From the NCBI GenBank assembly GCA_963716145.1, contig OY970292.1, positions 965,404-1,029,403 of the forward strand: DNA of 64,000 bases. The letters run 5' to 3'. This document shows, piece after piece, positions 10,437-46,553 of this stretch; the stretch's first letter is position 1, and each line of letters starts with the position of its first letter. The stretch is from Candidatus Levyibacteriota bacterium. Its GTDB lineage: Bacteria > Patescibacteriota > Microgenomatia > Levybacterales > UBA12049. The notes under the pieces were generated by a model that searched no databases, was not told the DNA's origin, and saw only the letters and a program-made list of their open reading frames with translations. Position numbers and translations under genes: made by a program.

Positions 10437-10442
10437 ATCTTG

Positions 10443-10892: not shown

Positions 10893-10913
10893 ATGTTGTG
10901 TTAAAATAGCTTC

Positions 10914-12059: not shown

Positions 12060-12082
12060 CCCTCTCGTTAGAGGGTTTTTTA
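12060..12082 (+). terminator. intrinsic-terminator-like hairpin (accctct-cgtt-agagggt + TTTTT) ending 10 nt before the dapL ATG; possible leader or attenuator
   Basis: Perfect 7-bp stem followed by a U-tract, 130 nt downstream of the murB stop and directly abutting the dapL start. The AGAGGG in the 3' arm could double as a sequestered Shine-Dalgarno sequence. Confidence 0.4.
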
Positions 12083-12091
12083 ATATAAAAT

Positions 12092-14565: not shown

Positions 14566-14569
14566 AAAT

Positions 14570-18589: not shown

Positions 18590-18591
18590 GC

Positions 18592-19893
18592 ATGAAAAGT
18601 AAAAAGCAAGTTAATATTGGATTAATCGGTTTTGGAAATATCGGGAAAGGTGTTGTAAAGTATTTTCAGGAGGGACGGGGTAAGCCATTTAATATTCATT
18701 TAAAACGTATTGCAGTCCGCGATATAAAAAAATCCCGCGAGATTAAAGTTGATTTAACAGACAAGGTTGATGATATTTTTAACGATCCAGAAATAGATAT
18801 CGTAGTTGAGTTGATTGGAGGATTGGATCCGGCAAAGCAGTATATTATCAAGTCAATAGAAAAAGGAAAAAGTGTTGTTACTGCGAATAAAGCAGTAATG
18901 GCGCGTTTCACAAAAGAACTATTTACAAAATCTCGTGAAAACTCAGTGGATCTTGCTTTTGAGGCAGCTGTCGGTGGTGGAATTCCAATTATCAATACTC
19001 TTAATCGCTACAAGGGAGAAAAGATAGAGAGAGTTCTAGGTGTACTAAATGGAACCACTAATTTTGTTCTTACTCAAATGGAGCAAGGTCTTGATTTTAA
19101 CAGCGCAATAAAAATAGCCCAAGAGAAGGGATTTGCCGAAGCAAATCATATTTTGGATACCGGTGGATTTGACACAAGAGATAAGCTTTCTCTTATTGCT
19201 TCTATCATATTTAACGCGCAAGTGGATCCGGAAAAGATTTCAACGCGTGGCATAACAGATATTACTCCAGTGGATATTGATTTTGCGAATAAATATGGAG
19301 TAGAAGAAGGAGGCCCGGGATACGCGATAAAGCTTCTTGCGGTTGCTGAGAGGATCAATGGATCAGTTGAATTGAGAGTCAATCCAGCGCTTATTCTCAA
19401 AAATCATCCGTTAGCATCAGTGAGGGATGAAGTTAATGCGGTCTACGTTGAGGGTGAACTTGCGGGTCATCAAACATTTTCAGGAAGGGGTGCCGGTACA
19501 AATCCAACATCTAGTGCAGTTGTTTCAGATATTCTTCGTCTTGCAAATAATATACAAAGAGGAGTTGTTGATGATTTGCCTAAACTTGATGCAAAAATGA
19601 ATTATTTATCCGCAGAAAAGTCGGAACAGGAGGGATACCTGAGAGTTAATCTTTTGCACAAACCAGGAAGTATACATAAAGTAACCGGAATTATTGCCCA
19701 TCATGGCTTAAATATTAAAGACTCAGTTCAACGCGTTAAACACGGGTATAAAACAAAAGACGGGACAATAGTGATTCCTGACATAATTACAATAGAGCCA
19801 GCACCGCAAAAAACTATAGAAATGGCTCTCTCCGATCTTTCAAAGTCAGATAGGGTAGACGGAAAGCCCTTCTTCATGAGCATTGAGGAATAG
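18592..19893 (+). CDS. hom: homoserine dehydrogenase (Hom) with a C-terminal ACT domain
   Basis: NIGLIGFGNIGKGVV Rossmann fold, central catalytic domain, C-terminal ACT-like segment. Confidence 0.85.
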   Translation: MKSKKQVNIGLIGFGNIGKGVVKYFQEGRGKPFNIHLKRIAVRDIKKSREIKVDLTDKVDDIFNDPEIDIVVELIGGLDPAKQYIIKSIEKGKSVVTANKAVMARFTKELFTKSRENSVDLAFEAAVGGGIPIINTLNRYKGEKIERVLGVLNGTTNFVLTQMEQGLDFNSAIKIAQEKGFAEANHILDTGGFDTRDKLSLIASIIFNAQVDPEKISTRGITDITPVDIDFANKYGVEEGGPGYAIKLLAVAERINGSVELRVNPALILKNHPLASVRDEVNAVYVEGELAGHQTFSGRGAGTNPTSSAVVSDILRLANNIQRGVVDDLPKLDAKMNYLSAEKSEQEGYLRVNLLHKPGSIHKVTGIIAHHGLNIKDSVQRVKHGYKTKDGTIVIPDIITIEPAPQKTIEMALSDLSKSDRVDGKPFFMSIEE

Positions 19894-19977: not shown

Positions 19978-21468
19978 ATGTTTTGGGCAGATGAATTATT
20001 AAAAAATAGAAATACAAAAGAGTTGATTAATGACTCATGGACTCCATCAGGCATTGTTCATATGGGATCATTAAAAGGTCCTGTTATTCATGATGTCCTA
20101 TACCGTATCCTCAAAGAAAAGAATGCAGACGTAAAATATATTTATGGATTTGATGATGCAGACCCAATTGATGGTCTTTCTCCGGATTTAACTGAGTCTC
20201 ATTCAAAATACTTGGGAGTTCCTATTTCTGTCGCGCCACCGCCTGATGGCAATGGATCATTTAGCGATTACTTCAGCAGTAAAATGAAAAATCTTTTTGA
20301 AGCTTTGGGAATTGATGCTGAGATTTACAAAACAAGCGAACTGTATAAAAACGGAAAATTTAACGAAGCAATAAAGTATGTTTTGGATCATGCAGAAGGG
20401 ATAAGGAAAGTTTATAGTGAAGTTTACCAAAAAGATATCTCCTCTGATTGGTTTCCTCTCCAGATAATTTGTCCCAATTGCGGTAAGTTGGGTACCACGA
20501 AAGTTACGGGGTGGGACGGAAAAGAAGTCAGTTTTGAATGTTCAAAGACTCTTGTAAAATGGGCTATTGGCTGCGGAGAGACAGGAAAAATATCACCATT
20601 TGATGGTAATGGCAAAATGCCTTGGAAAGTAGAATGGGCGGCCAAATGGTGGACATTTGGAGTCACCATTGAAGGTGCGGGTAAAGATCATGCGTCAGCT
20701 GGGGGATCCTATGATGTGGCGATGAAAATTTATAATGATGTATTTAAAAAAGAATTGCCTTTGAAATTTGCATACGAATTTTTCCTTTCAGGCGGAAAAA
20801 AAATGTCTTCCTCAAAAGGGACAGGCTTAACAGGGGAAGATTTATTGGAAGCTTTACCTCCCGAGATTGCAAAATTTCTGATGATACGAACAGAGCCGAA
20901 CCGCGCGGTTGAGTTTACACCAAAAGAAACATTGGTAATTCCTGTTTTATTCGATGAGTATCAAAAAGCCGCTGATGCGTATTTCAATAAAACAGACGAA
21001 GATTTGGCCCGCGTGTTTGAACTATCCCAAATAGACGAAGTTAAAAAACCTCCAGCGGCCCGCTTTTCCGTACTTGCCCAATGGGTGCAAATGCCTAACA
21101 TGGCTGATAAAATAAAAGAAGAAGGTCTTTCCGAATGGGTGGAGTATACAAAAGTTTGGCTTGAGAAATATGCTCCGGAATCGGAAAAGTTTGCAGTAAA
21201 ACAAAGTTTACCTGATTCAGCAAAAAATCTGTCTGAGAAGCAAAAAGATTTATTAAAAAAAATTGCTTCAGAAATTGATAAGGCAAAAGACGCGGAAGAA
21301 TTTCAAACTAAGATTTATGAAATTGGCAAAGAGCTGGGATTAAATGGTAAAGAAGCTTTCGCGGCAATATATTTGTCATTAATCGGAAAAGATCATGGTC
21401 CAAAAGCCGCGTGGTTAATTTTATCTTTGGACAAAGAATTTATAAAAAAAAGATTTCAGGAAGTTTAG
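19978..21468 (+). CDS. lysK: lysine--tRNA ligase, class I (archaeal-type LysRS)
   Basis: Class I fold with a HIGH-like element (SGIVHMGS) and KMSKS-like KMSSSKG. Length of ~500 aa is typical of class I LysRS. Sits directly after the lysine-biosynthesis operon. Confidence 0.85.
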   Translation: MFWADELLKNRNTKELINDSWTPSGIVHMGSLKGPVIHDVLYRILKEKNADVKYIYGFDDADPIDGLSPDLTESHSKYLGVPISVAPPPDGNGSFSDYFSSKMKNLFEALGIDAEIYKTSELYKNGKFNEAIKYVLDHAEGIRKVYSEVYQKDISSDWFPLQIICPNCGKLGTTKVTGWDGKEVSFECSKTLVKWAIGCGETGKISPFDGNGKMPWKVEWAAKWWTFGVTIEGAGKDHASAGGSYDVAMKIYNDVFKKELPLKFAYEFFLSGGKKMSSSKGTGLTGEDLLEALPPEIAKFLMIRTEPNRAVEFTPKETLVIPVLFDEYQKAADAYFNKTDEDLARVFELSQIDEVKKPPAARFSVLAQWVQMPNMADKIKEEGLSEWVEYTKVWLEKYAPESEKFAVKQSLPDSAKNLSEKQKDLLKKIASEIDKAKDAEEFQTKIYEIGKELGLNGKEAFAAIYLSLIGKDHGPKAAWLILSLDKEFIKKRFQEV

Positions 21469-32453: not shown

Positions 32454-32789
32454 TTATTTTTTATACGCAAAAAGAAGCTCCAGTACCAGGAATAATGCCG
32501 CAAGAAGAAGTATAAAAAATGGATGAGTTAAGTTATTCAAGCAGAAAGAAAGAAAAATAACCGTAAAAACCCCAAGCAATAATCCATGTATGACACTTTT
32601 GGAAAAATATGTCGTTAATGAAAATAAAAAAAGAAAAGTCAGCAGAAAAAACAAACTGACAACAGGTAGCTGATAACCTATCAATGAAAAATTATGACTA
32701 GGAGAGAAGTAATAAATTAAAGCTGAAAGAGATATTAGACTTATTACGCCAATAAATAAAAACTTTAGCTGTCTTTTTCTTTTGTGCAT
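32454..32789 (-). CDS. small polytopic membrane protein (four TM helices), hypothetical
   Basis: 111 aa, hydrophobic. Starts 4 nt after the stop of the Cys-rich pilin-like gene, so is likely co-transcribed. Confidence 0.5.
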   Translation of the reverse strand: MHKRKRQLKFLFIGVISLISLSALIYYFSPSHNFSLIGYQLPVVSLFFLLTFLFLFSLTTYFSKSVIHGLLLGVFTVIFLSFCLNNLTHPFFILLLAALFLVLELLFAYKK

Positions 32790-32792
32790 ACA

Positions 32793-33509
32793 TTATGGGT
32801 TAATTAATGGGATTCGCAGTATGCTAACTCCAATTAGCTCAAGGAAAACGAAAGCGAAGATCAAGAACAGCAGTCCGACAATCGCAGCAATCAACTGGTC
32901 CCGTCCCTCTTTTACCGCTTCAGGTTTGCCTTCTGATGTCATTATCTTAAAACCGGCCCTCATCAATAGGAGTAGCGCTACTGCCCCTGAGCCGGCGAGA
33001 ATTATAGCAAAGACCGATGCAATAAATTCTCCGGGGTTAGTTCTTAGCCCCCCGACTCCAGTATAAAATTGTGGACATTTTCCATCCTTCAAGTCTTGGG
33101 CGCATGGTGGTTTAGGGGGAGGAGGCTGAGGAATGTCTTCATCACCAGGATAAACGCAAATTTTTCCCAGTAATTTTATTTCTTTACATTCAAGTCTCGT
33201 CTTATCCGGGTCCTCACCGCAGTCCGCACCATTGTCACAAGCGTCTCCAGGATTGCCGAGCGGAAGACAGGCATGTTTGTCGAAACCTCGTTTTATTTCT
33301 CTGCAAGAAACTTTGGGATACTTAGAATCTGGAACACAGACTTCGTCTTTGTCGCATCCATCTCCTACTTTTGCAGCGTAGCTTTTGGGTAAATCTATAG
33401 AAGAGAAGAGGAGCAGAGCAATAAAAAAGATAATACCTGTAAAAAAATTCTTTTTCATCTTTTTAGCATTGCAAATTGCAAGAAAAATTGCAATAGGGCT
33501 TGACAACAT
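32793..33509 (-). CDS. secreted Cys-rich ectodomain fused to a C-terminal two-TM 'pilin-like' module (paralog of 37837..38136)
   Basis: Signal peptide, a ~150-aa domain with ≥14 Cys plus a Pro-rich linker (PQPPPPKPP), then a C-terminus (…GAVALLLLMRAGFKIMTSEGKPEAVKEGRDQLIAAIVGLLFLIFAFVFLELIGVSILRIP) clearly alignable with the 99-aa protein. Confidence 0.6.
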   Translation of the reverse strand: MLSSPIAIFLAICNAKKMKKNFFTGIIFFIALLLFSSIDLPKSYAAKVGDGCDKDEVCVPDSKYPKVSCREIKRGFDKHACLPLGNPGDACDNGADCGEDPDKTRLECKEIKLLGKICVYPGDEDIPQPPPPKPPCAQDLKDGKCPQFYTGVGGLRTNPGEFIASVFAIILAGSGAVALLLLMRAGFKIMTSEGKPEAVKEGRDQLIAAIVGLLFLIFAFVFLELIGVSILRIPLINP

Positions 33510-33536
33510 TTGGCACTCGTGCTATATTATTGCTAA
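33500..33536 (+). promoter_or_regulatory. sigma70-like promoter (TTGACA-17-TATATT) overlapped by a degenerate CIRCE-like inverted repeat
   Basis: ttgaca at 33500-05, tatatt at 33524-29. ttggcactc-N9-tattgctaa (33510-33536) versus the CIRCE consensus TTAGCACTC-N9-GAGTGCTAA. The ATG of hrcA lies 12 nt after the -10 element. Confidence 0.45.
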
Positions 33537-33541
33537 TTCAC

Positions 33542-34273
33542 ATGCATAATTTAACCCAAAGACAGATAGAGATACTACGTAGCATTATTGAAGAGTATAT
33601 TGAAACAGCAGAGGCGGTTGGATCTGAAACTATTGAAAAAAAGCACAATTTAAGCGCAAGTCCAGCAACGATCCGTAATGAAATGGTTAAGTTGGCAGAA
33701 TACGGATATATAAAAAAAACTCACTCTTCGGCAGGGCGTGTCCCTACAGGCTCAGGTCTTAAATTTTATGTACGTGAGCTGATGAAGGAAAAAGAACTAT
33801 CAACAGTTGAGGAAGTTGCTCTTAAAGAAAAAGTTTGGGATTATCGTGAGAAAATGCAGCGTTTTTTAAAAGAAACAACCAAGTCGCTTGCTACTAAAAC
33901 CAATGCTCTTGCCATAGCCACAACCAATGATGGAGATATCTTTTGTTCAGGGTACGCAAATATTTTGGAAATGCCGGAATTTTTTGATATTGATGTAACC
34001 AAGAATTTATTGGAAGCACTTGATGAATATGACTGTTTTGAAAATATTTTTGCAAATACTCAGGGCGGATCGGAAATTCATGTTTTGATAGAAGATGAAC
34101 TTGGCGAAAGCCTGCGTGGTCCTTATGGATTTATCTTCACAGAATATGCAACACCTTTGAATATTCATGGGAGAATTGGTGTATTGGGACCAGCACGCCT
34201 TGCTTATACATCAATAATTCCAACTGTCCGTTATTTTGGAGAAATGATAAGGGAAAGCGCGAAGGGATGGTAA
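33542..34273 (+). CDS. hrcA: heat-inducible transcription repressor HrcA (short, ~243 aa)
   Basis: N-terminal wHTH (LTQRQIEILRSIIEEYIETAEAVGSETI…SPATIRNEMVKLAEYGYIKKTHSSAGRVPT). Start moved to MHNLTQ to fit the promoter. Confidence 0.75.
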   Translation: MHNLTQRQIEILRSIIEEYIETAEAVGSETIEKKHNLSASPATIRNEMVKLAEYGYIKKTHSSAGRVPTGSGLKFYVRELMKEKELSTVEEVALKEKVWDYREKMQRFLKETTKSLATKTNALAIATTNDGDIFCSGYANILEMPEFFDIDVTKNLLEALDEYDCFENIFANTQGGSEIHVLIEDELGESLRGPYGFIFTEYATPLNIHGRIGVLGPARLAYTSIIPTVRYFGEMIRESAKGW

Positions 34274-34274
34274 A

Positions 34275-34325
34275 CGAAGTTCAAAATTCAAATTGCAAAA
34301 TTCAAAATTACAATTAAAAATTAAA
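34275..34325. repeat. AT-rich intergenic motif family member (CAAAATTCAAA / AATTAAAAATT)
   Basis: gttcaaaattcaaattgcaaaattcaaaattacaattaaaaattaaaaatg immediately upstream of grpE. Confidence 0.6.
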
Positions 34326-34326
34326 A

Positions 34327-34827
34327 ATGACTAAAAAAGACATAAAAAATGAAGAAGAGAAGCTTGATGAAACAGAAGAAATTGAGGAAAACACAGAAGA
34401 CAGTGAACTTGAACAATTAAAAGTAAAGCTGGAATCAGCAGATGACAGCTACAAAAGAGCGCTTGCTGATTATCAAAATTTGCAGAAAAGAGTAAGTGAT
34501 GAAAGACGAGATCTGATATTGGCGGCCAATAGAGATTTGCTCTTGCGAATTCTTTCTGTTTTGGATACACTGGTTCTTGCAAACAAGCATGACGAGAGCG
34601 AAGGTTTGAAAGTCGCTATTAAGCAATTTGAAGATATACTAAAGTCAGAAGGTGTTACAAAAGTAGAAACTAAAGGATTAGAGTTTGATCCTCAATTTAT
34701 GGAAGCTGTAGCAATTGATTCTGGGGAGGAAAATAAAGTTTTAGAAGAAATGCGTTCAGGATTTATGTTAAACGATAAAGTTCTGAGACCGGCGCAAGTG
34801 AAAGTAGGTTCTGCAAAGCAGAATTAG
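34327..34827 (+). CDS. grpE: nucleotide exchange factor GrpE
   Basis: Acidic N-terminus, coiled coil (…DSYKRALADYQNLQKR…) and a C-terminal beta domain. Confidence 0.85.
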   Translation: MTKKDIKNEEEKLDETEEIEENTEDSELEQLKVKLESADDSYKRALADYQNLQKRVSDERRDLILAANRDLLLRILSVLDTLVLANKHDESEGLKVAIKQFEDILKSEGVTKVETKGLEFDPQFMEAVAIDSGEENKVLEEMRSGFMLNDKVLRPAQVKVGSAKQN

Positions 34828-34839
34828 GAGGAATAAATT

Positions 34840-36759
34840 ATGGGAAAAATAATAGGAATAGATTTAGGAACAACAAATTCAGCAATGGCTGTGATGGAAG
34901 GTGGGTCACCTAAGGTTATCCATTCGGCCGAGGGACGAAACACTGTACCATCTGTTGTTGACCCGATCGCGCATATTGTTGGCGATGTGGCAAAGCGTCA
35001 AATGGCTCTTAAGCCAAAACGCACAATTTTTTCAATAAAAAGATTAATCGGGCGTAAATTTAGCGATAAGACCGTACAGGGGGATATAAAATGGCTTCCG
35101 TATACTGTTAAGGCAGGACGCGACGATATGGCCGTTGTTGAGGTTGAGGGAAAGACTTTTACTCCTCAGGAAATTTCAGCTCAAATTCTGCAGAAGATTA
35201 AAGCGGATGCTGAGGCATATCTTGGGGAAAAGGTAACCCAAGCAGTTATCACAGTTCCTGCATATTTTGATGACAGTGAGCGTCAGGCAACCAAGCAGGC
35301 TGGGGAAATCGCTGGACTTGAAGTTTTGCGTATCATTAATGAGCCAACAGCTGCAGCCCTCGCGTATGGTTTGGATAAAAAGAATGCGCACACCATCGCG
35401 GTTTACGACTTGGGTGGAGGAACTTTTGATATCTCAATTCTTGAATTAGGGGATGGTGTCTATCAAGTTAAATCCACAAACGGTGATACGCATCTTGGCG
35501 GAGACGATTTTGACCAGAAGATTATAAATTACTTGGCAGATGAATTCCAGAAAGAAAACGGAATTGATCTAAGAAAAGACCCTCAAGCCCTACAAAGACT
35601 TAAGGAGTCTGCCGAAAAAGCAAAGATTGAGCTTTCAAGTAGTCAGGAGGCATCCATTAACCAGCCCTTTATAACTCAGGGAAAAGACGGCCCTTTACAT
35701 CTGACTATGAGTTTGTCCAGATCCAAACTTGAGCAAATTGTTGATGACCTGATCCAAAAAACACTAACGCCTCTTGAAAAAGCAATAAAAGACGCAGGGG
35801 TAAAAGTTGCGGATGTTAATGAGGTAATTATGGTAGGCGGTATGACCCGTATGCCAAAGATAGTTGAGGTTGTTGAGAAATTCTTTGGGAAAGAAGCTAA
35901 TCGGTCAGTAAATCCAGATGAAGTTGTGGCAATCGGTGCTGCCGTTCAGGCCGGAGTTTTGGGTGGTGAGGTGAAAGACGTTTTGCTTTTGGACGTCACG
36001 CCATTGACGCTTGGGATTGAAACTCTCGGAAGTGTCTCAACACCATTGATCGAGCGGAACACAACTATCCCAACCAGTAAATCTCAAGTTTTCTCAACAG
36101 CCGCAGATAACCAAACGCAAGTTGAAATTAACGTTCTTCAGGGTGAGCGCCCAATGGCAGCTGACAACAAGTCGCTTGGACGGTTTATCTTAGAGGGAAT
36201 TCCACCCGCCCCAAGAGGTGTACCACAGGTTGAGGTAACATTTGATATTGATGCAAATGGTATTTTAAATGTCTCGGCAAAAGACAAGGCAACCGGTAAA
36301 GAAAACAAAATCCAAATTACAGGAAGCACCGGTCTTTCCAAGGAAGAAGTTGAAAAAATGACCAAAGATGCGGAAATGAACGCAAAAGAAGATGAAGAGA
36401 AGAAAGAAAAGATTGAGGCTCGAAATCACGCTGATTCACTCATATTTACCGCTGAAAAATCTTTGAAGGATGCAGGAGACAAAGTCGCACCTGAAATAAA
36501 AACAGAAGTTGAAGAAAAGATAAAAGCATTGAAAGATATTTTGGATAGCGGATCAAAAGAAGAGCTTGAAGCAAAAACCAATGAACTTTCAGAATCTCTT
36601 CAGAAAATAGGCCAAGCCGCATATCAACAAGGGCAGCAAGCGCAAACTCAGGAGGAAATTGAGAAAGAAGAGAAAGAGGGAAAAACTGACGACGCAACAG
36701 ATTCAGATAAGGACAAGAAAGATAAGGAAGAACCGGTTGAGGGAGAGGTTGTAGAATAA
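34840..36759 (+). CDS. dnaK: molecular chaperone DnaK (Hsp70)
   Basis: GIDLGTTNS…, [16 protein letters not shown], …EVEKM…, acidic C-terminal tail. Confidence 0.95.
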
Positions 36760-36764
36760 ATTTC

Positions 36765-36850
36765 CAATAATTACCAATTTCAAATATCCAATTCCCAAGA
36801 CGTTTATTTGATATTTGCAATTTGAAATTAGAAATTTGTAATTCAAAAGA
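36765..36850. repeat. AT-rich intergenic motif family member (CAATTTCAAAT / GCAATTTGAAATTAGAAATTTG)
   Basis: Low-complexity A/T run with CAA/TTG periodicity between dnaK and dnaJ. Confidence 0.5.
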
Positions 36851-36852
36851 GC

Positions 36853-36876
36853 GCTAAAGGCGCTTTTTTAGTATAA
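36853..36876 (+). terminator. short hairpin + U-tract (agcgc-taaag-gcgct-tttttt) between dnaK and dnaJ
   Basis: 5-bp GC stem followed by six T's, 8 nt before the dnaJ start; a weak or partial terminator. Confidence 0.35.
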
Positions 36877-36883
36877 TTAACCT

Positions 36884-37762
36884 ATGGCAGACAAAAATTA
36901 CTACACAGTTTTAGGCGTTTCCAAAACTGCTTCAGCGGACGAGATTAAAAAAGCTTACCGTAAGCTTGCTTTGGAATTTCATCCAGACCGCAACAAATCA
37001 AAAGAGGCAGATGCTAAGTTTAAAGAAGTCACCAAAGCATATGAAGTGCTATCAGATGAAGGGAAAAGAAAAACTTATGATCAGGTAGGCCACGCGGGAT
37101 TTGAGCAGGGAGGATTCGGCGGAGCCGGAGGTGGGCCATTTGGCGGCGGCCAGGGTGGGCAGCAAGGCGGACAATACGGACCATTCAGTTATACCTATTC
37201 ACAAGGGGGAAATGGGGCAAATTTTGATTTTGGAGGATTCTCCGACCCATTTGAGATATTTGAACAGTTTTTTGGCGGTGCGTCTCCTTTTGGCCAACGT
37301 CAGCGCCGTCCTGCGTATTCAGTAAAAATTAGTTTTGATGAAGCAGTGCATGGAGTTGAAAAACAGGTAAGTATAGACGGAAAATCACAGAAAATAAAAA
37401 TTCCTCCGGGTGTGGACCGCGGACAACGGATGCGTTTTGGGGATTATGATGCGGTGATAGATGTTACACCTGACAAGCGTTTTGCCAGGGAGGGCTATGA
37501 CATTATAACTGAGAAGGAAATTTCATTCCCCCAAGCAGCACTTGGAGGAGAAATATCGGTTGACACAGTTGATGGCGATGTGAAAATTCGTATTCCTGCC
37601 GGGACACAGCCTGAGACATTGATCCGGCTCGCCGGGCGGGGAATAAAACACCTGCAGTCAAATGGACATGGTGATCACTACCTAAAAATAAAAGTTACAG
37701 TCCCTAAAAAATTGAACAAACAACAAAAAGAGCTGCTCGAACAGCTTGAAAACGCTAAATAA
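36884..37762 (+). CDS. dnaJ: DnaJ-family co-chaperone (J domain + G/F-rich region + C-terminal substrate domains; no CxxCxGxG zinc finger)
   Basis: J domain with HPD (…[13 protein letters not shown]…), a G/F-rich linker, and no cysteine repeats, giving type II/CbpA-like architecture. Confidence 0.8.
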
Positions 37763-37783
37763 GAATATCTCCTTATCTTCAAA

Positions 37784-37822
37784 ACCTAAGATTGTTTCTC
37801 CTTGTTTTAGGTATTGTTTTTT
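37784..37822 (+). terminator. terminator-like hairpin (acctaa…ttaggt, 17-nt loop) + T-run downstream of dnaJ
   Basis: Inverted repeat at 37784-89 / 37807-12 followed by attgtttttt. Confidence 0.3.
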
Positions 37823-37836
37823 GCTACTGTTAGATT

Positions 37837-38136
37837 ATGGCATTTTGTCCCAATATTAATGATATAAATACGGATTTTGGGTGCTTTCCCAATGATCCTA
37901 TTGGTTTTGTTTTAGCGTTTTACCGTATTGGGCTTCCGTTTGTGGGAGGTGTTGCTTTAATTATTTTAATGATTGGAGGTTATACGCTCATGACTTCGCA
38001 AGGTGATCCGCAGCGCGTACGTTCTGGAAAAGCGTGGATTTACTACGCGATCGGGGGACTTTTGCTTGCAGTTTTCGGGTACGTCATTATTCAGACAATT
38101 GCCGGAGACATATTGAAGATACCAGGCTTTAGTTAA
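37837..38136 (+). CDS. small two-TM 'pilin-like' membrane protein (VirB2/TrbC-like topology), paralog of the C-terminus of 32793..33509
   Basis: 99 aa: two hydrophobic helices flanking a polar loop (…GGVALIILMIGGYTLMTSQGDPQRVRSGKAWIYYAIGGLLLAVFGYVIIQTIAGDILKIP). Position-by-position similarity to the C-terminus of the Cys-rich protein. Confidence 0.55.
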   Translation: MAFCPNINDINTDFGCFPNDPIGFVLAFYRIGLPFVGGVALIILMIGGYTLMTSQGDPQRVRSGKAWIYYAIGGLLLAVFGYVIIQTIAGDILKIPGFS

Positions 38137-38138: not shown

Positions 38139-41100
38139 ATGAAAAAATTTCTGCCCATATTTATAATTGTTTTCTTCGTTGGATTGTTTTTTACAAAAAC
38201 CCCGGTATTTGCTGCTGACCCTCCAGCTCAGCAGATGCAACAGGGAGCAACGGCACCCGATGGATCCTGGGTTTTGGATTCTGAAGTAACCTTTATAGGT
38301 AAAAATGCCGCAAGGTCCGGTAATCTGCTCGATTTTATATTAACAAATTATAATTGGGTTTGTGTTAAGCAGGCAGCAACTGGACAGTGCGACAACAGCG
38401 ATAATCCATTAAGAGGGGTATGGTTGACCACCGCTACATTTATAGTAGCCCCATTGCTCTTGATTGTCATACTTGCTGCCGCAATAGTAATAATGGTTAC
38501 GAGAGGCCGAAGTCTTACGATTACGCGTTTTCTTCCTCGGTTTATAATAGTGATTCTCTTAATTTTCATATCTTTTCCTATATTGCAGTATTTTTACCAA
38601 TTTATAGATAGCATTCAAGGGTTTTTCTTGAGACGGGAAATTATCCTTTTTGGTACGCCGTTTGGAGGCAACCCATGTCCACCTCAGTGTATTTCTCAAA
38701 AAGATCTGCTTTTTGTGGGCTGGGATTATGATAAATTTATTGGGCTTAGGCGAGTAGGCGATCTTTACTCAGAATCTGCATTCATCTCTCTTTTGCTCAC
38801 AAAATTAACAGCGCTTACTTATTATGTAATGGTTGGGATACTAATTCTTCGAAAAATTATTCTCTGGCTTTTTATAATTGTTTCTCCTATTTTTCCGCTT
38901 CTTTTGATGTTTTATCCAGTTCGCAATACCGGGAAGATTTGGATTGGGGAATTTTTTCGTTGGCTCTTGTACGGTCCGCTTTTCGCTATTTTTCTGAATG
39001 GGTTGGTGGCTTTATGGAGGAAGCAGATTCCCTTATCGTTTACCCCATTAGATCCCGCAGTTAAGGTAAACGAAACCATTCTTTATCCAACTGCTATAAA
39101 CATACTATTGGGAGGGCCCAGGCAATTCGTAACGCAGACTAACAGTGTCAACCTTACGGAAACATTTGCTTTATACGTAGTCTCATTACTCATGTTATGG
39201 GGGGTTATCATACTGCCATGGATACTTTTGCAGATATTTCTTGATTATGCTTCCAACTTAGGAGTTAGTGACAGTGCGGTTATGAAAAATCTGGTAAATA
39301 TGGTAAATAGGCAAAATTCTCCATCTCCCACGGGACATCCGCCTGCGACATCGGGATCTGCTCTTAGCTTGCCTTTTGCCAAAAAGTTCAGCATGCCTCT
39401 TCCTGCGGCTCCCGCTGGTATGGCAAAAGAGATACCTATTTCAACAGCAAAGATATCGCAAGCTACTTTTATGCCATCAGCTCAAGTTAAGGCACAGGTA
39501 TTAAGTCTGGCTAGTGTGCCTCTGCCTACAATGCGGGATATTGCCAAATACGATACATCTTTAATTTCAAATGATAATTCTACTCGAAATCAAGTCCAGG
39601 CACTTCAGAAGCATTTACAACAAATTGGAAATCCCGCATCTTCTACTTCAACTACAGAACGTGAAAGGTATACAGAAATACACGAAAAACTTAGTCAAGA
39701 GAGTAAAACTGGAAATACTCTGGCAACATCAATTCTGAATGCAGCGAGTACGGCTTCCAAACGGAGCAGTCAAGTAAGTAGCGCGCAAGTAAAAAATATT
39801 TTAACCCAAATTGCCAACCCTACAACCGCTTCAAGCTCAGTTGTAAACCGAGAGAAACTCTCTAAGATGAATCAGTCGCTTACAAAAGCGAAACAGGAGG
39901 GCAATACTCTTGCAACGGCGATTTTGTCTGTAAATGCAAAGACTCCGGAGTCGGAAGTTGTAAAACTGCAGGAAAAAATAAGAGAAGCCAGAGAAAAAGG
40001 CGAACCTGTTGGAGTTCAGCTGGCTCAACTTACTGAGAAAAAAGAAACAATCCCACTTGTTAATCGTGTTCAGACGGTAAGTAAGGAAGATTATGAAGCC
40101 GTAAAGCAAATGTGGAAAGAAAATTATAAAAATCTCGAAGTGCCGGAAGGTATGGCCGGAACCCGTGAAGAATGGGTTAAGGACGATGTCGCTAAAATAG
40201 ATAACATCATCGTTCAACTGGGCTCACACGACGAAGAACAGATGAATAAAGGCATGGAGGAGGTATCAAGCATTCTACCCTTCCTTTTAGTTGGAGGCTT
40301 TTCACAAACAGAAATTATATCTTATCTAAAAGCTAAGCAAGATGCAGCAAAAGAAGTAACTGCAGAATTGGCCCAGGAAGAGGATGATAAAGTTTCTGTA
40401 ACCGTAAAGAAGACTGCTACGGCTCAGCAAACAATGTCAGCTTCTGTTTCGGAAGATTCAGATGAGGAGTCAGATCTAACCAACTTATCCTCAAGACCAG
40501 CAAATATTATTAATCCCCAAGTGTCAAATGAAATCCTAGAGATGGTTAATCTTAAGCTTCCTAATATGCGTGATATTGCAAAATACGAAACAATGACGTT
40601 ATCAAAAGATAAATCTAAATCGTTAGAAGTCGAGAAAGTACAGGAGGTTCTCCGAAATATTGCTAACCCAACAGGTATAACTAATGCTTCTGATAAGGAG
40701 CGTTATGAAAAACTTAAAGAAAAAATGATTGAGGCAAGTCAACAAGGTAATGTTACCGCAGAGATCATTTTGGCGGCAGCAAATGGGGCAATACCTGTTA
40801 GTAGCACAGTAACTTCCGCTCAGACTAAGACAGTTCTTTCACAAATTGCCAATCCGTCTCTTGCCGCTTCATCAAAAGACAAGCAGCGATTTACTTCACT
40901 TCACGATCAGCTGACAAAAGCAAGTCAACAGGGAAATACTCTGGCAACGTCTCTTCTTTCCGTTAAAGAAACAGCAACCAAAGAGGAAGTGGAAAAGCTT
41001 AATGCTCAATTGGGAGAAGCAAAGGCAAAAGGTGAAAGTCTTGCTAGCTCAGTATTATCAAACATTGCACCTCCTATCTCTCTTCCTGTAACCAATCGTA

Positions 41101-42815
41101 TCCAAACGGTAAGCCAGGAGGATTATCAAGCGGTAAAAGAGATGTGGAAAGAAAATTACCAGAATCTTGAAATCCCCGCTGGTCTGGCAAGCACAAGACC
41201 TGAGTGGATTAACAACGATATTTCAAAGATTGATAGTATCATTACTCAATTGTCATCAACTGATCAGGAACAGGTAGCAAAAGGCATGGAGGAGGTATCA
41301 AGCATTCTACCCTTCCTTTTAGTTGGAGGCTTTTCACAAACAGAAATCACCGCTTATCTAAAAGCAAAACAAGACGCAGCAAGGGAAATACTTACAGTAA
41401 TCTCACAGGAAGAAGATACAAAGATAACGGTTGATAGAAGGCAAACAAACATCAAGCAAACAATGAGAGCAGCTATTCCCCAAGCAGCAGACGAGGAGGC
41501 TATGAGTTTAGCCGGTCCAACAAAAAATATAGTTATTCCGCAAATTTCAGAAAAGACATTAACAATGGCCAATCTTCAGCTTCCCAAGTTGACAGATATT
41601 GTCAAATATGAAGTAAGGAGTTTGACAAAAGACAAAAAAGAGTCAGAACGTATCGAGAAAATGCAATCAGTGCTTGTAAAGATTGGTAATCCGGCAAGTA
41701 TTACAACTCCGCAGGAGCGTGCGCAATATGAAAATCTCCGCCAAAAACTTGGGGAAGAAAGCTTAAAAGGTAATACTACAGCAGATATGATTCTGTCAGC
41801 AGTTTCTAACTTAGAAGGAGCTGTTTCTGAAATTAATGCAACACTGGTAGACATAAGTACAGTACTTCAGCAAATCGCAAATCCCCAGAGCGTTGCATAT
41901 GCAGATGACCGTGATTATTACACACGTTTGCATCAATATCTAGAAAAAGAAAGTAAAGAGAAAAATAACGTACTCGCTGAAAAGATTTTGAGCGTCAATA
42001 AGACAACCAAGACCTCAGACATACAGGATATTAAACAACAATTAATACTTACGAAAGATGGGACAGTATCTCTTCTTCCGCAATTGACGACAGTTATAAA
42101 TGACTTTTCTACTACTAAAAAGTTGAGATCAGTAATAAATCAAATCTTATCACCTGAACCTGTGGGGGGTAAGCCTGCTAGCGCTACAGTTATAAAAATT
42201 CGAAAGTCAATAGATGAGGCAAATAAAAAAGGTGACATTCTTGCAGCATCAATATTGTCGGTTAATGATAAAACATCCGATACAGCCATAAAGCAAATTC
42301 ACGAAAAGCTTACTGAAGCAGGCAAAAAGGGCGATCCCGCTGCACAGGCAATTATTTCGCAAGTCTCTGGACCCTTTGCTTCGTCAAGCGCAAACCGTAT
42401 ACAAGAGGTTACACCGGAAGAGTACGAAGAAGCAAAGGAATTATGGAAAAAAGCCTACCTACAGTATTTTGTCCCTCCTGGTTTTACAGAGGATATTAAG
42501 GGAAGAATTGATTGGATAAGCAAAGACAGTAAGGATATTGAAGAGACAATTGGTCTTTTGCAGTCAACTGACGAGGAAAAGAAAGATACAGGAATCAAAA
42601 AAGTTTCAAGCATTTTGCCATTTTTGCTTCTGGGAGGTTTTTCCTATGATGAGATGATTGAGTATCTTCAAACTAAGCTGGAAGCAGGAAAAGAAGCGTT
42701 AGCTAGTATTAATGATGAAGAGGATAAATCAATTGAAATAAATGTTAAAAAGGAGGAAAAACCTCAAGAAATGCAAGCAAGCGAAGAGATAGAAGGTACA
42801 GATAAGAAAAATTAA
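38139..42815 (+). CDS. giant (1558 aa) polytopic membrane protein: signal peptide, ≥6-TM N-terminal domain, then three ~344-aa super-repeats built from a ~90-aa 'IANP…ASQQGNTLA…ILSV…AKxKG(D/E)' module
   Basis: Signal peptide and TM helices within aa 1-380. Repeated blocks include LPxMRDIAKYE…IGNPA…, …ILTQIANP…LTKA(K/S)QQGNTLATxxLSV… and GMEEVSSILPFLLVGGFSQTEIxxYLKAKQDAA, with 65 nt identical at 40251-40315 versus 41283-41347. Starts 2 nt after the pilin-like gene. Confidence 0.7.
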   Translation: MKKFLPIFIIVFFVGLFFTKTPVFAADPPAQQMQQGATAPDGSWVLDSEVTFIGKNAARSGNLLDFILTNYNWVCVKQAATGQCDNSDNPLRGVWLTTATFIVAPLLLIVILAAAIVIMVTRGRSLTITRFLPRFIIVILLIFISFPILQYFYQFIDSIQGFFLRREIILFGTPFGGNPCPPQCISQKDLLFVGWDYDKFIGLRRVGDLYSESAFISLLLTKLTALTYYVMVGILILRKIILWLFIIVSPIFPLLLMFYPVRNTGKIWIGEFFRWLLYGPLFAIFLNGLVALWRKQIPLSFTPLDPAVKVNETILYPTAINILLGGPRQFVTQTNSVNLTETFALYVVSLLMLWGVIILPWILLQIFLDYASNLGVSDSAVMKNLVNMVNRQNSPSPTGHPPATSGSALSLPFAKKFSMPLPAAPAGMAKEIPISTAKISQATFMPSAQVKAQVLSLASVPLPTMRDIAKYDTSLISNDNSTRNQVQALQKHLQQIGNPASSTSTTERERYTEIHEKLSQESKTGNTLATSILNAASTASKRSSQVSSAQVKNILTQIANPTTASSSVVNREKLSKMNQSLTKAKQEGNTLATAILSVNAKTPESEVVKLQEKIREAREKGEPVGVQLAQLTEKKETIPLVNRVQTVSKEDYEAVKQMWKENYKNLEVPEGMAGTREEWVKDDVAKIDNIIVQLGSHDEEQMNKGMEEVSSILPFLLVGGFSQTEIISYLKAKQDAAKEVTAELAQEEDDKVSVTVKKTATAQQTMSASVSEDSDEESDLTNLSSRPANIINPQVSNEILEMVNLKLPNMRDIAKYETMTLSKDKSKSLEVEKVQEVLRNIANPTGITNASDKERYEKLKEKMIEASQQGNVTAEIILAAANGAIPVSSTVTSAQTKTVLSQIANPSLAASSKDKQRFTSLHDQLTKASQQGNTLATSLLSVKETATKEEVEKLNAQLGEAKAKGESLASSVLSNIAPPISLPVTNRIQTVSQEDYQAVKEMWKENYQNLEIPAGLASTRPEWINNDISKIDSIITQLSSTDQEQVAKGMEEVSSILPFLLVGGFSQTEITAYLKAKQDAAREILTVISQEEDTKITVDRRQTNIKQTMRAAIPQAADEEAMSLAGPTKNIVIPQISEKTLTMANLQLPKLTDIVKYEVRSLTKDKKESERIEKMQSVLVKIGNPASITTPQERAQYENLRQKLGEESLKGNTTADMILSAVSNLEGAVSEINATLVDISTVLQQIANPQSVAYADDRDYYTRLHQYLEKESKEKNNVLAEKILSVNKTTKTSDIQDIKQQLILTKDGTVSLLPQLTTVINDFSTTKKLRSVINQILSPEPVGGKPASATVIKIRKSIDEANKKGDILAASILSVNDKTSDTAIKQIHEKLTEAGKKGDPAAQAIISQVSGPFASSSANRIQEVTPEEYEEAKELWKKAYLQYFVPPGFTEDIKGRIDWISKDSKDIEETIGLLQSTDEEKKDTGIKKVSSILPFLLLGGFSYDEMIEYLQTKLEAGKEALASINDEEDKSIEINVKKEEKPQEMQASEEIEGTDKKN
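39550..42760 (+). repeat. in-frame tandem super-repeat array (period ~1032 nt, three copies) inside the giant membrane protein gene
   Basis: Protein-level three-fold repetition. The 65-nt identical DNA block between copies 1 and 2 indicates recent duplication or gene conversion. Confidence 0.8.
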
Positions 42816-42869: not shown

Positions 42870-45800
42870 ATGTTTGGAACATTTTTTAATCAAAAAAAAC
42901 CTGGGGATACTGATTCTAATCAGCAGAATCCTCAAAATACACCTGACCAAACCAATCAATCTTTAGCTCCAAGTAGTCAAACTCCCTCGGGGCAAATTCA
43001 GCAAGCGCAAGATCCGGTAGCGCCTGGACCTATCAGCCCAAACATCTCACAGGATACGTCTTCTCAAGATGTTCAGCAGCAGCCAAATATAAATACTCCT
43101 ATTAAAGATCCAACCGGCAATTTATCACAAAGAGCTGATACTCAAGCATTATCGCACCTTGATCCAAGAGCTGGGCAAGTCCTCACTCACGCGCAAGAAG
43201 AAACAAGACGTATAAAGCAGCAATTTATAGAACCCGCTCAAATCCTTTTTGGCCTATTGTATGATGAGCAGATTTACAAATTATTGGAGGAGTCTCAAGT
43301 TGATGGCGGTGCGTTATCCAAAGAAATTCAGTCAAAAGAAATAATGGGTGTTTTTAGAGGTCAACCAGCTTTAAGTAAGAATGCGCAGGCAGTATTTGAC
43401 CAGGCGTATAAAGACTCAAAAATGCGCGCATCCAACTTTATCTCCGCTGAAGACTTATTGATTGCTTTATTTACTCCTGACTTTGGGGTTTCACAGTCTT
43501 TGGAATCACGAGGGCTTAAAAAAGAGGCCTTAATTGAAAGAATTGCCAAAAATCCTAATTCAAACTACAGCAAAAAAACAATTCTTGAAAGCTACGGAAT
43601 TGATCTCAACGAAGAAGCCAGATCCGGAAAACTTGATCCCATTGCGGGTCGGGATTTGGAAATTGACAGGATGGTTCACATTCTTCTCCGAAGGACTAAA
43701 AACAATCCGATTATTATCGGTGAAACAGGAGTTGGGAAAACAGCAATAGTTGAGGGATTGGCACAGAAAATTGTTGCAGGACAAGTGCCCAAAGATTTAC
43801 AGGACAAAAGAGTTTTTCAGCTTGATGTTGCTTCGCTGGTTGCGGGTGCATCGCACAGGGGAGAATTTGAGGAGCGTCTCCGGGGAGTAATTAATGAAGT
43901 TTTGGGATCAGGAAACAAAATAATTCTTTTTATTGATGAGATTCACGCGCTTTTGGGGACAGGAGACGGAGAAGGGATGAATGCTGCAAATATCATAAAA
44001 CCCCACTTGGCCCGTGGCCATTTGCAGCTGATTGGTGCTACAACCACTATTGAATACAGAAAGAATTTTGAAAAAGATAAAGCATTTGAGAGGCGCTTTC
44101 AGCCTGTAACTGCTGAAGAGCCTTCGGAGGAAAATGCTTTTGAAATGCTCAAAGTCATCCGCCCAAAATATGAGAAGTTCCATAGAGTTACTATTTCTGA
44201 CGACACTCTTATGGAATGTGTCAAACTCTCCAAAAAATATATAGGAGAGCGTTATCTACCTGACAAGGCAGTTGATTTATTGGATGAGGCAGGATCAGAA
44301 GTAAAATTACAAGCGGACGAAGGCAAAAGAGCTGATGCTCAAGTTAAAAAGGCTGATATTGAAAACGTAGTAAGTGGATGGACTGGAATACCTATTACTA
44401 AATTGACAGAGGATGAGTCCGAAAAGCTCTTAAAGCTTGAAGACAGGATCCATCACAGGCTTATTGACCAGATGGAGGCAGTAGTTGCTGTTTCTGAAGC
44501 GGTAAGGCGGGGAAGGATCGGTTTGGCCGCTGCCAATAGGCCGATTGCTTCGTTTGTATTCTTAGGTCCAACAGGAGTTGGAAAAACGGAACTTGCCAAA
44601 ACACTTGCCGAGCTTTTGTTTGGCCGTGATGACGCCATGGCAAGACTTGATATGTCAGAGTATATGGAGAAGCACGAAGTTGCAAAGCTTATAGGTGCAC
44701 CTCCGGGCTATGTTGGTTATGAAGAAGGTGGTCAATTGACAGAAGCAGTTCGAAAGAAACCTTATTCAATTGTACTTCTGGATGAAATAGAAAAAGCACA
44801 CCCTGACGTATTTAACATTCTGCTTCAATTACTTGAAGATGGAAGATTGACTGACAATAAGGGAAATACAATTTCATTCAAAAACACTATTGTAATTTGT
44901 ACATCCAATATCGGAAGTTCTCTCATTCAGGAAAAATTGGCAGAAGATGACCCGCAGCACAAAAAAACACCTGATGAGCAGGCAAAAACATTCAAAGAAC
45001 TGACAGAGGTTGTTAAAGGAGAGCTTATTAAATTTTTTAGGCCAGAACTTCTTAACCGTTTTGATGAGGTTGTAGTATTCAAGCCGCTCGCTCAGGAACA
45101 TATGGCAGGAATTGCAAGATTGGGAATCAAAAAGACAGCAGGCCTTCTTAAAGAGCAGGGCTTTACACTTCAAATTACAGAAAAAGCTATCGCAAAGTTG
45201 GCAAAAGACGGATATGACCCGGTTTATGGCGCAAGGCCTCTACGTCGTTTAATTCAAACAGCGATTGAAAATCCAATAGCCCTTGAGATAATTTCCAAAA
45301 AATTTGAAGCAGGAGATACGATCGTTGTTGATTATAATGATGCAAGTAATGAGTTTACATTCACCAAAGGCCAAAGTGATGTAAATACAGCAGATAGCTT
45401 GAAAAAAATACTGCTTGATATAAATAATGCATCAGGCCTTACTGATCCAGCAAAAAAAGATCAATACACTAGGCTCCACGACAGCATCACTCAGGCTAGT
45501 GCTCAGGGAAATGTGTGGGCTGGTGCAATACTTGTTGTAAATAAGGATAGTAAGAATGAAGAAATTGAAAAAATTGCAAAAGAGTTAAAAGCAGCTCGGG
45601 ACAAAGGTGATCAGCTTGCTCAGGATATAGTGGCACTCTTAAATACAGAAACAGTTAAGGAGGCTGAAATGGAACATGAGAAAGAGCCGGTAACCCAGTT
45701 TAAAAAAATGCTTCAACAAATAATTAATCCTTTGTATTCGGCAACACCAGGTAACAAGGATAGATTTAGTCAATTGTATGAAAAACTTACAGCGGCAAGT

Positions 45801-46553
45801 CAACAAAACAACTCAATTGCCGCCTCAATTCTTGCAATTACAGAACAAGCCCCAGATTCAGATATTCAGCAGTTAAAAACTCAACTTGAAACTGCTAAGG
45901 GTCAAGGTGATCAGTTGGCAATTGATATTCTTTCAACAATAGAAGCTGGTACCAAAACCGAAGCAGTAGCAAGGCTTAAAGAAGTATTGCTTTCCATAGT
46001 TAATCCTATTACTGTTCAGATTCCACTTGAAAAAGAAAAATATGTGGCACTTGCCAAGAAAATTTCCGAAGCGTCTCAAGCTGGGAATGCTTTAGCAAAT
46101 TCGATACTTTCTGTAAACGATGCGACTACTGATGACTCACTTATACAGCTTAAGACTCAATTAGAAACTGCAAAGGATAGTCATGATGAGGTGGCTAGTG
46201 CAGTTTGGGAGATGGTATCCGGGACGGGACTGATTGCAAGCGCTGAACAGCAAGTCTCAGAGCAAAATCCCGCTAAAACATACCCATTTGGTATGGGGCA
46301 GCAGCCTGTTAATAACCCATTGACCCCAGATCCATCTCAGGGAGCGGTCTTGCAGCAGGGGGCGGTTCTTCAAGCACCAATTGCCCAACCAGCTTTTGGT
46401 CAATCAAGTGGCGGGCCGACTACTTTCCAGCCCCCTACAGCTGATCCCCAAAGCGGCATGAGTCCGGGAATGAGTACGTTAAATGAAATTTTGGAAAAAG
46501 ATACAGATTTGGTAAGTAATCCTGTTGAATCAGACGGTCAGGATATAACTTAA
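42870..46553 (+). CDS. ClpC/ClpA-like double-AAA+ unfoldase: N-terminal Q/P/S-rich tail, Clp_N domain, D1 and D2 but no M-domain and no ClpP-docking loop, plus a C-terminal ~380-aa extension carrying the same repeat module as 38139..42815
   Basis: Clp_N (…[34 protein letters not shown]…). D1 Walker [19 protein letters not shown]; D2 Walker [21 protein letters not shown], Walker [11 protein letters not shown], sensor [12 protein letters not shown]. The C-terminus shows three repeats (…[44 protein letters not shown]…[17 protein letters not shown]…; …[43 protein letters not shown]…[14 protein letters not shown]…; …[11 protein letters not shown]…[19 protein letters not shown]…[12 protein letters not shown]), then a Q/P/G-rich tail. 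Confidence 0.85.

Follow-up and report, generated by a model that had tools for sequence, protein, structure and literature searches.

The pilin pair and the chaperone operon

The DNA analysed here is a window of 64,000 nt from a Candidatus Levyibacteriota genome, to which all open reading frame (ORF) coordinates refer. It looks like a piece of a Patescibacteria genome of the Levybacteria type, and the closest homologs with a named source are labelled Levybacteria, Levyibacteriota or Microgenomates. It contains the chaperone genes hrcA, grpE, dnaK and dnaJ (33542..37762), bordered on each side by a gene for a small membrane protein. By their sequence, both proteins are members of PF18895 (T4SS_pilin), the VirB2-like pilin family of Patescibacteria, which was already known. 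They are probably pilins of a type IV secretion system (T4SS), and this is probably a distal locus of a system whose core lies elsewhere on the chromosome. The features around the two pilins are the following:

32793..33458, minus strand: Cys-rich pilin, 221 aa from Met18 of a 238-aa ORF (PF18895; exact match to P0121)
33375..33458, minus strand: signal peptide of the Cys-rich pilin, part of the 221-aa protein
33135..33374, minus strand: two-repeat 8-Cys domain of the Cys-rich pilin
33063..33134, minus strand: Pro-rich stalk and conserved Cys pair of the Cys-rich pilin
32796..33062, minus strand: PF18895 pilin core of the Cys-rich pilin
33500..33536, plus strand: promoter-like site TTGACA-17-TATATT overlapping a HrcA operator similar to CIRCE (controlling inverted repeat of chaperone expression) (promoter scan, CIRCE match)
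33542..34273, plus strand: hrcA (orthologs with Pfam names in three related loci, L001, L002 and L005)
34327..34827, plus strand: grpE (same ortholog basis)
34840..36759, plus strand: dnaK (same ortholog basis)
36884..37762, plus strand: dnaJ (same ortholog basis)
37837..38136, plus strand: leaderless VirB2-like pilin, 99 aa (PF18895 below cutoff, NF045849, paralogy)
32454..32789, minus strand: 111-aa protein with four predicted transmembrane (TM) segments, directly downstream of the Cys-rich pilin (conserved neighbour)

An earlier note on this sequence had described two paralogs placed around hrcA-grpE-dnaK-dnaJ. The ORFs of the window confirm this arrangement, and the coordinates of both ORFs and the aligned strings quoted there are correct. 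Residues 12-96 of the 99-aa protein align without gaps to residues 150-234 of the 238-aa ORF, with 32 identities in 85 positions (38%, BLASTP E=6e-17). The complete set of six-frame ORFs of the window, from 40 aa upwards, contains only two matches to a hidden Markov model (HMM) of the pilin core, and these are the two ORFs themselves.

For the long paralog, Met18 (MKKNFF...) is the most likely start, which gives 221 aa and not the 238 aa stated before; exactly this 221-aa sequence is on record, as P0121. The protein has a signal-peptide-like N-terminus, MKKNFFTGIIFFIALLLFSSIDLPKSYA|AK, two 4-Cys repeats (C52-C81 and C91-C118, in the numbering of the 238-aa ORF), a PQPPPPKPP stalk, a conserved Cys pair placed after the stalk (C136/C145), and the pilin core, with hydropathy segments at 163-181 and 210-228. 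The earlier note had recognised the signal peptide, the Cys-rich region and the Pro-rich stalk, but its count of at least 14 Cys is wrong: The mature protein has 10, and the 11th Cys of the ORF, C13, precedes the likely start. PF18895 has a gathering cutoff of 26.6 bits, which the long paralog exceeds (28.0 bits, E=2.3e-6). Both pilins also match NCBIfam family NF045849 over about 62-65 aa, with E=3.7e-6 for the short pilin and 9.6e-5 for the long one (26.5 and 22 bits).

We have found 27 homologs of the long paralog (P0122-P0148), all of them with PF18895 and with one common plan: a signal peptide, a Cys-rich N-domain which is very variable in length and sequence, a PPPPxPPC string followed by a second Cys after 6-10 residues, and a highly conserved core. 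Some of them add Cys-rich tails or a PG_binding_1 domain after the core, and members of this set are labelled "pilin" or "Type IV secretion system pilin" in some sources. Among six syntenic orthologs of the long pilin, median identity is 12% in the N-domain versus 56% in the core, where many Gly, Pro and Ser positions are invariant. This hypervariability fits surface display of the Cys-rich domain, and the view that the domain is secreted, of disulfide type and borne by a proline stalk is supported. It is reasonable to suppose that this fast-evolving domain would be exposed on a pilin scaffold, as an adhesin or a tip. It has no match in PDB or Pfam, and we have found no description in the literature of an architecture with Cys-rich N-domain, proline stalk and pilin core. 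The Cys-rich pilin, at times in two copies, fills the gap between metG and hrcA in closer relatives only.

The short pilin has an in-frame TAG two codons upstream of its start, which excludes a longer ORF. Its start coincides exactly with the conserved Cys of the long-pilin family. An ortholog from Daviesbacteria (L037, 5993..6424) has a 45-aa signal peptide, whose cleavage, as predicted by eye, would leave "ACNPDTETETDFGC...". This predicted product starts at the same N-terminus, so that the short pilin of Levybacteria would be a leaderless version of it. Orthologs of the short pilin carry precomputed weak matches to PF18895. The AlphaFold model (predicted local distance difference test, pLDDT, 82) has two helices, 21-53 and 58-93, with pLDDT above 90, joined by a basic loop; the N-terminus forms a small beta-hairpin bracketed by Cys4 and Cys16. 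Hydropathy segments are found at 31-49 and 67-93. The N-tail has a net negative charge and the inter-helix loop a net positive charge. Together with Cys residues placed only in segments predicted to be outside, these charges suggest that both ends are outside and the loop is cytoplasmic.

The best fold match of the short pilin in BFVD is an 86-aa protein assigned to "Pithovirus LCPAC201" (A0A481Z4E0, 27% identity, E=0.075). Possibly a giant-virus bin from metagenomic data contains a PF18895-like gene here.

The promoter-like site, a strong one, and the CIRCE-like element are located in the divergent spacer of about 84 bp between the Cys-rich pilin and hrcA. The CIRCE match has three mismatches, while no such match is expected by chance, and the element is kept upstream of hrcA in 11 related loci. 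The four chaperone genes match their orthologs in L001, L002 and L005 with 54-96% identity (tblastn). A terminator scan of the spacer between dnaJ and the short pilin gave only a weak AU hairpin and a U-run, which do not exceed what shuffled sequences give (z=-0.38).

It is uncertain whether the 111-aa four-TM protein belongs to the T4SS. It has no match in Pfam, NCBIfam or PHROGs, and its orthologs adjoin metG in many loci, including some without the Cys-rich pilin (L087, for example). A role as VirB3/PrgI-like part is unsupported; the protein is also present where the Cys-rich pilin is absent.

The VirB6-like protein, the Clp ATPase and gene order

Two large genes follow the short pilin on the same strand:

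38139..42815, plus strand: extended VirB6/TrbL-like protein, 1558 aa (TrbL matches of homologs, AlphaFold and Foldseek)
38139..39263, plus strand: signal peptide and 5-helix membrane domain of the VirB6-like protein
39507..40538, 40542..41561 and 41679..42803, plus strand: three tandem tail modules of about 345 aa
42870..46553, plus strand: ClpB-like double-ring AAA+ ATPase, 1227 aa (Pfam, NCBIfam)
about 45387..46136, plus strand: three INP repeats in the C-terminal extension of the Clp ATPase, with a P/Q-rich tail after them (INP HMM)

The 1558-aa ORF starts 2 bp after the short pilin and is VirB6-like, which the earlier note did not recognise. Its N-domain has 173 homologs, mostly from Levybacteria and of about 705-730 aa. 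Pfam TrbL (PF04610) is matched by 17 of 33 aligned homologs with 45-68% identity (best E=8.1e-7), and several homologs carry precomputed PF19590 matches. The AlphaFold model (pLDDT 80.5) shows five long helices after the signal peptide. In a Foldseek search of PDB, ranks 1-7 are chains of the R388 stalk complex (TrwJ/VirB5-TrwI/VirB6 entries), with chain lengths which fit VirB6. The E-values are modest (8e-3 to 0.28), with probabilities of 0.82-1.00 and TM-scores (target) of 0.45-0.50; nothing else is above noise. A comparison of the profile of this family with PDB sequences gave no meaningful match. The protein has only four Cys, all in segments predicted to be outside, and none in the 1,180-aa tail. 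Charge and Cys distribution point to a topology with the N-terminus out and the C-terminus in.

The three tail modules share 49% and 31-33% identity, and each of them opens with repeats of about 60 aa, which we call INP repeats ("INP...GNxLAxxIL"). The module family is small and has 346 representative clusters in 1.84 billion proteins, with 1 to about 11 copies per protein. Pfam gives nothing credible on the tail module or on the extension of the Clp ATPase.

The Clp ATPase contains Clp_N, AAA, AAA_lid_9, AAA_2 and ClpB_D2-small domains, with Walker A motifs at residues 284 and 566. Its NCBIfam ClpB score, 870, is below the cutoff of 1232. A low-complexity extension of about 100 aa, rich in Q, P and S, is found at its N-terminus. 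The M-domain, a coiled coil inserted in the first nucleotide-binding domain (NBD1) and needed for ClpB-DnaK coupling, is absent: In PDB alignments, query residues 382-386 span ClpC 389-465 and ClpB about 405-525, while ClpA aligns unbroken. The IGF/IGL loop for ClpP binding is also missing from NBD2.

The C-terminal extension of the Clp ATPase matches the tail of the VirB6-like protein (BLASTP E=7e-22) through the 60-aa units, whose motif is L..I.NP...(R/K).(Y/F)..L...GN.LA..IL. An HMM built from six VirB6-like units only finds, in the window, the VirB6-like protein and three units of the Clp extension (independent E-values of about 1e-14 to 1e-16; 4e-15 to 2e-14 for the three Clp units). Over about 117 loci, with every ORF of 100 aa or more included, it finds nothing beyond 86 proteins of VirB6-like type, the C-termini of 13 Clp ATPases and 3 fragments of tails. 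The presence of a repeat private to two adjacent genes in 13 loci suggests either physical coupling or local exchange of repeats. In relatives, the extension may be fused (ORFs of 1225-1509 aa), absent (826-892 aa), or a separate ORF, as in the nanopore contig L001. The Clp ATPases of more distant relatives do not have it, so coupling is not universal.

Some observations on related sequences should also be noted here. A second Clp/Hsp100 paralog of 802 aa is found in the window (52773..55181), with a good NBD2 (AAA_2, D2-small), only weak matches to NBD1 and no Clp_N; L010 has a counterpart of it about 4 kb after the first Clp. In L001, the VirB6-like gene is broken into 381 + 911 aa (10001..13865) and the Cys-rich pilin into 131 + 187 aa in another frame (1249..2747); these are probably assembly frameshifts and not real splits. 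Several metagenome-assembled genomes with this Levybacteria-type locus are labelled "uncultured Gammaproteobacteria", "Lysobacterales", "Acidiferrales" or "Limnocylindrales" (among L008, L009, L011, L012, L014, L018, L022 and L026). They include the 1.61-Mb "chromosome" OZ246394.1, and are probably mislabelled or contaminated bins.

We have compared the gene order of 99 VirB6-like loci, obtained from species-representative genomes (27 loci), metagenomes (80 loci) and individual look-ups. A short-type pilin is found immediately upstream of the VirB6-like gene in 91 of 93 loci, and dnaK lies within 6 kb upstream and on the same strand in 49 of 54. In 47 of 48 loci the Clp ATPase comes next downstream in the same orientation; the gaps between the VirB6-like gene and Clp measure 4-107 bp. 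An additional gene separates dnaJ from the pilin in some relatives. In seven loci the order is dnaK-pilin-VirB6-like-Clp-dnaJ, with the triad inside the operon. A different case is a Daviesbacteria contig, where three pilins and the VirB6-like gene are directly upstream of groES-groEL, not of dnaK or clpB. The order hrcA-grpE-dnaK-(dnaJ)-pilin-VirB6-like-Clp ATPase, found in about 100 related loci, appears to be undescribed.

A secretion system probably encoded at two sites

The earlier note observed that there is no VirB4 in the window and that the nearby ATPases are Clp-like. This agrees with our Pfam scan of window ORFs of at least 90 aa, in which no ATPase of VirB4 or VirD4 type appears. 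None of the 99 VirB6-like loci has a VirB4 within 8-10 kb. The note suggested a non-canonical assembly rather than a T4SS. The evidence does not support this: A VirB6/TrbL-like gene is placed immediately downstream of the short pilin, and close relatives of the Cys-rich pilin are found inside canonical VirB4 clusters. For example, L020 contains, in this order, a Cys-rich pilin, a pilin, PrgI, a 220-aa protein and VirB4 (with P-loop_TraG/AAA_10 domains). In L034, which surrounds the VirB4 protein P0248, there are a regulator, three pilins, PrgI, a TraC-like protein, VirB4, an M15 peptidase, four small genes, dnaN and dnaA, with no recognisable VirB6 in this neighbourhood.

The note had also advised a search for VirB4 beyond the window. 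Among the top matches with the VirB4 of L020 as query is P0164, a VirB4 of 715 aa, recorded in NCBI and ENA on a single contig of 1,142,061 bp. The window pilins (P0121 and P0150) are recorded on a contig of exactly the same size and from the same pair of sources. This makes it likely that a T4SS elsewhere in the genome explains the pilins, which the note had named as a refutation of its reading. Three more VirB4 matches are on contigs of 463,514, 1,318,932 and 549,591 bp, which are those of P0122, L018 and L010; these contigs carry the same arrangement around dnaK. With a VirB4 apparently in the same genome and relatives of the pilins in VirB4 clusters, the locus would be the distal part of a VirB4-type T4SS, not a machine without VirB4. 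One T4SS encoded at two sites is the simplest reading.

In the literature, PF18895 pilins are known from 1,948 Patescibacteria assemblies, frequently in divergent arrays, and only 1,135 of these assemblies have them near virB4 (PMC12102498). For S. epibionticum, both the T4SS and its array of pilins have been shown to be essential (PMC10633639, PMC12857230).

We propose a conserved triad of genes, of which the short pilin comes first and an extended VirB6-like inner-membrane protein and the Clp ATPase follow, placed after the hrcA-grpE-dnaK-dnaJ operon, or inside it in some relatives, the operon being presumably under HrcA/CIRCE control. In the long pilin, divergent from hrcA, the same core is extended by a signal peptide, a proline stalk and a domain of disulfide type which is hypervariable. 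The rest of the system would be encoded elsewhere: a pilin array, a PrgI/VirB3-like protein, a TraC/TrsD-like protein, VirB4 and a peptidase, located beside dnaA in relatives. Each pilin would insert in the membrane as a helical hairpin, the two ends being outside and the basic loop cytoplasmic. A VirB4/VirB6 platform could then extract the pilins and assemble a pilus or stalk, on which the Cys-rich domain of the long paralog might be displayed as a variable adhesin or tip, filling the role of VirB5 in diderm T4SSs. Family, paralogy, the VirB6-like fold, the gene order and the presence of a VirB4 on a contig of identical length are what the analysis shows, and from these we infer topology, polymerisation and a function as adhesin.

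Several points weigh against this proposal. The short pilin scores just under the PF18895 cutoff (25.8 bits, E=1.1e-5) and, unusually for a VirB2, lacks a signal peptide. A Foldseek comparison of its hairpin with PDB gives no match with E<=0.001 and is non-specific; the only pilin found in this search is that of the Aeropyrum pernix conjugation pilus, at rank 2 with E=1.0. An hhalign comparison of the pilin alignment with six plasmid VirB2/TrbC proteins (Ti, Ri and related), in which the alignments are shallow, gives a probability of 0.5% and E=0.12. The window copy of the VirB6-like protein has no Pfam TrbL/VirB6 match at E<=0.1. The link between P0164 and the window genome comes from identical contig size and sources, not from reading the contig. 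The related loci form one lineage, with 45-75% identity of the VirB6-like protein, so the counts given above show stable synteny and not independent events. In addition, we know of no pilus seen in Levybacteria.

Other comparisons of the pilins gave no PF04956 (VirB2/TrbC) match at E<=0.01 and, with a pilin profile, no meaningful match among PDB sequences. The VirB2/TrbC-like pilin of the earlier note is thus retained as a two-helix hairpin of T4SS type belonging to PF18895, while homology with classical VirB2/TrbC is undetectable: The assignment of a VirB2 fold depends on family, topology and gene context.

A first alternative reduces the pilin fold to an anchor of two helices in the membrane. 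To this anchor the long paralog would owe its tethering as a surface protein, while the short one would be a small subunit in the membrane, and neither would polymerise. A globular domain of about 100 aa per subunit is hard to fit in a VirB2-type filament, and the Cys-rich tails or PG_binding_1 domains after the core of some homologs are typical of anchored surface proteins. Also, T4SSs of the Gram-positive (MPF_FATA) type, to which the VirB4 of Patescibacteria is akin, normally have no pili (PMC12102498). Nevertheless, the core is conserved far beyond the needs of an anchor, as its median identity and its invariant Gly, Pro and Ser indicate, its linkage to VirB6-like or VirB4 genes is near-invariable, and the pilin arrays of S. 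epibionticum are essential (PMC10633639). We consider this alternative unlikely.

A second alternative is that the pilin, the VirB6-like protein and the Clp ATPase form a partly autonomous, chaperone-coupled machine, in which Clp docks via INP repeats on the cytoplasmic VirB6-like tail and drives the extraction of pilins or the unfolding of substrates, whether or not VirB4 takes part. It is a sharper version of the non-canonical assembly suggested in the earlier note. Several of the features described above can be read in this way: The triad stays intact while dnaJ switches sides, Clp follows the VirB6-like gene closely and on the same strand in nearly all loci, the INP repeats are confined to these two proteins and a few tail fragments, and Clp has neither the M-domain for coupling to DnaK nor the ClpP loop. 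The absence of VirB4 near the 99 loci and the location of the Daviesbacteria pilins and VirB6-like gene beside groES-groEL point in the same direction. On the other hand, the same genomes hold VirB4, PrgI and a TraC-like protein with pilin arrays of their own and no recognisable VirB6, for which a single split T4SS is the simplest explanation. The Clp ATPases of distant relatives do without the INP extension, dnaK and clpB are ordinary heat-shock genes whose adjacency may be inherited order, and recombination could have spread the repeats between neighbouring genes. This alternative seems to us quite improbable.

The last alternative, that these are unrelated two-TM proteins (holins or toxin-like peptides) with a superficial resemblance to pilins, is hardly credible. 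Hairpins are indeed structurally non-specific and Foldseek gives no match with E<=0.001 in PDB or BFVD, but the matches to pilin families in Pfam and NCBIfam are specific and the gene context is that of a T4SS with chaperones, not of lysis. Holins, which the earlier note had mentioned, can be rejected: There is no PHROGs match at E<=0.1 and no named holin among the BFVD fold matches.

The most novel of the readings, in which the T4SS would have a chaperone- or unfoldase-coupled branch, is that the leaderless pilin, the extended VirB6 and the M-domain-less, ClpB-derived unfoldase of Levybacteria-type Patescibacteria work as a module of their own within the chaperone operon regulated by HrcA. 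The unfoldase, tethered by INP repeats to the cytoplasmic VirB6 tail, would feed unfolded substrates into the channel or pull pilins out. We regard this idea as unlikely. If it were true, the Clp ATPase would be specialised for a type IV system in the manner of ClpV, and secretion would be tied to the stress regulon of an obligate epibiont.

Few machines of Patescibacteria have been shown to be essential for their life as epibionts, and the T4SS is one of them. VirB6 was found to be "scarce" in Microgenomatia in a 2025 survey, where divergence was suspected (PMC12102498). The VirB6-like family described here was probably missed by that survey, and is a good candidate for the missing Microgenomatia VirB6; the present locus is a strong candidate for encoding it. 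The parts of the T4SS would be found in two clusters, one with VirB4 near the origin and the other embedded among chaperone genes. Host specificity could be set by the Cys-rich fusion of the pilin, which is hypervariable, and a private repeat common to the ClpB-like ATPase and the VirB6 tail could link unfolding to secretion. We have found no description of the split locus, of the divergent extended VirB6, of the Cys-rich fusion or of the link between Clp and INP repeats. If the adhesin and Clp leads fail, what is left is an ordinary pilin of a known family in a lineage-specific gene order.

Neighbouring genes and known systems

A few other genes in the window deserve mention. Polynucleotide phosphorylase appears split into two overlapping ORFs, 60820..62538 (two RNase_PH domains, 572 aa) and 62405..63223 (KH and S1, 272 aa), while relatives such as L002 have a single gene for 741 aa; the split may be a frameshift, a sequencing error or genuine. 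A phosphoketolase (XFP) fused to a C-terminal CoA_binding_2 domain (924 aa) is followed by an AMP-binding enzyme similar to acetyl-CoA synthetase (5911..10436). Genes of the aspartate family and lysine pathway are found at 12092..19893: an aminotransferase, a lysA-like decarboxylase, aspartokinase, dapB, dapA, asd and homoserine dehydrogenase. A class I lysyl-tRNA synthetase comes after them (19978..21468). To our knowledge, this phylum is generally described as lacking amino acid biosynthesis, and such a run of genes is unusual in it.

The closest known systems are the pilin arrays of Patescibacteria, such as those of S. epibionticum ML1 and N. lyticus TM7x (Quinonero-Coronel et al. 2025, PMC12102498). 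They share with the window the Pfam family, the two-helix hairpin, the presence of several divergent paralogs per genome, often away from virB4, and a monoderm host. The window differs in having two paralogs split around the dnaK operon and not a tandem array beside virB4. It also differs in that one pilin is leaderless and the other has a hypervariable Cys-rich N-domain on a proline stalk.

NF045849 corresponds to the Mbov_0395 family of pilin-like conjugal transfer proteins, found in integrative and conjugative elements of Mycoplasma. These are also small two-TM proteins from conjugation systems of MPF_FATA type in monoderms; the scores of the window pilins are well below the equivalog cutoff of 40, so that the relationship is distant at best. 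Patescibacteria have a VirB4 akin to that of the MPF_FATA class (PMC12102498). Tenericutes belong to this class. The NF045849 matches hint that the pilin may have arrived with a MPF_FATA system, a point left open by the 2025 survey.

The role proposed for the Cys-rich paralog, a surface-exposed minor component which makes contacts, is that of VirB5, the tip adhesin of the T-pilus. There is no relation in sequence or fold. VirB5 is a separate protein, but here a pilin core and the presumed adhesin form one fusion.

The VirB6-like protein resembles VirB6/TrbL proteins, and R388 TrwI in particular, in being a polytopic protein, predicted to be N-out, with about five long helices; its best fold matches in PDB are with R388. 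Its large hydrophilic C-terminal extension is a feature of extended VirB6 proteins, of which Rickettsiales supply another example. A class of extended VirB6 has been described (PMC12857230). The window protein differs from these in that its tail is made of a lineage-specific repeated module of about 345 aa, and its gene is away from virB4.

Finally, the Clp ATPase has Clp_N and two AAA+ rings like ClpB/Hsp104, and ClpB is the closest protein by sequence. It differs from ClpB/Hsp104 in the absence of the M-domain, in the low-complexity N-terminus of about 100 aa, and, in 13 loci, in the C-terminal INP extension shared with the VirB6-like tail only. A ClpB derivative dedicated to secretion is known in ClpV (TssH). 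Like it, the window Clp is encoded with a secretion apparatus, and its role in secretion is putative.

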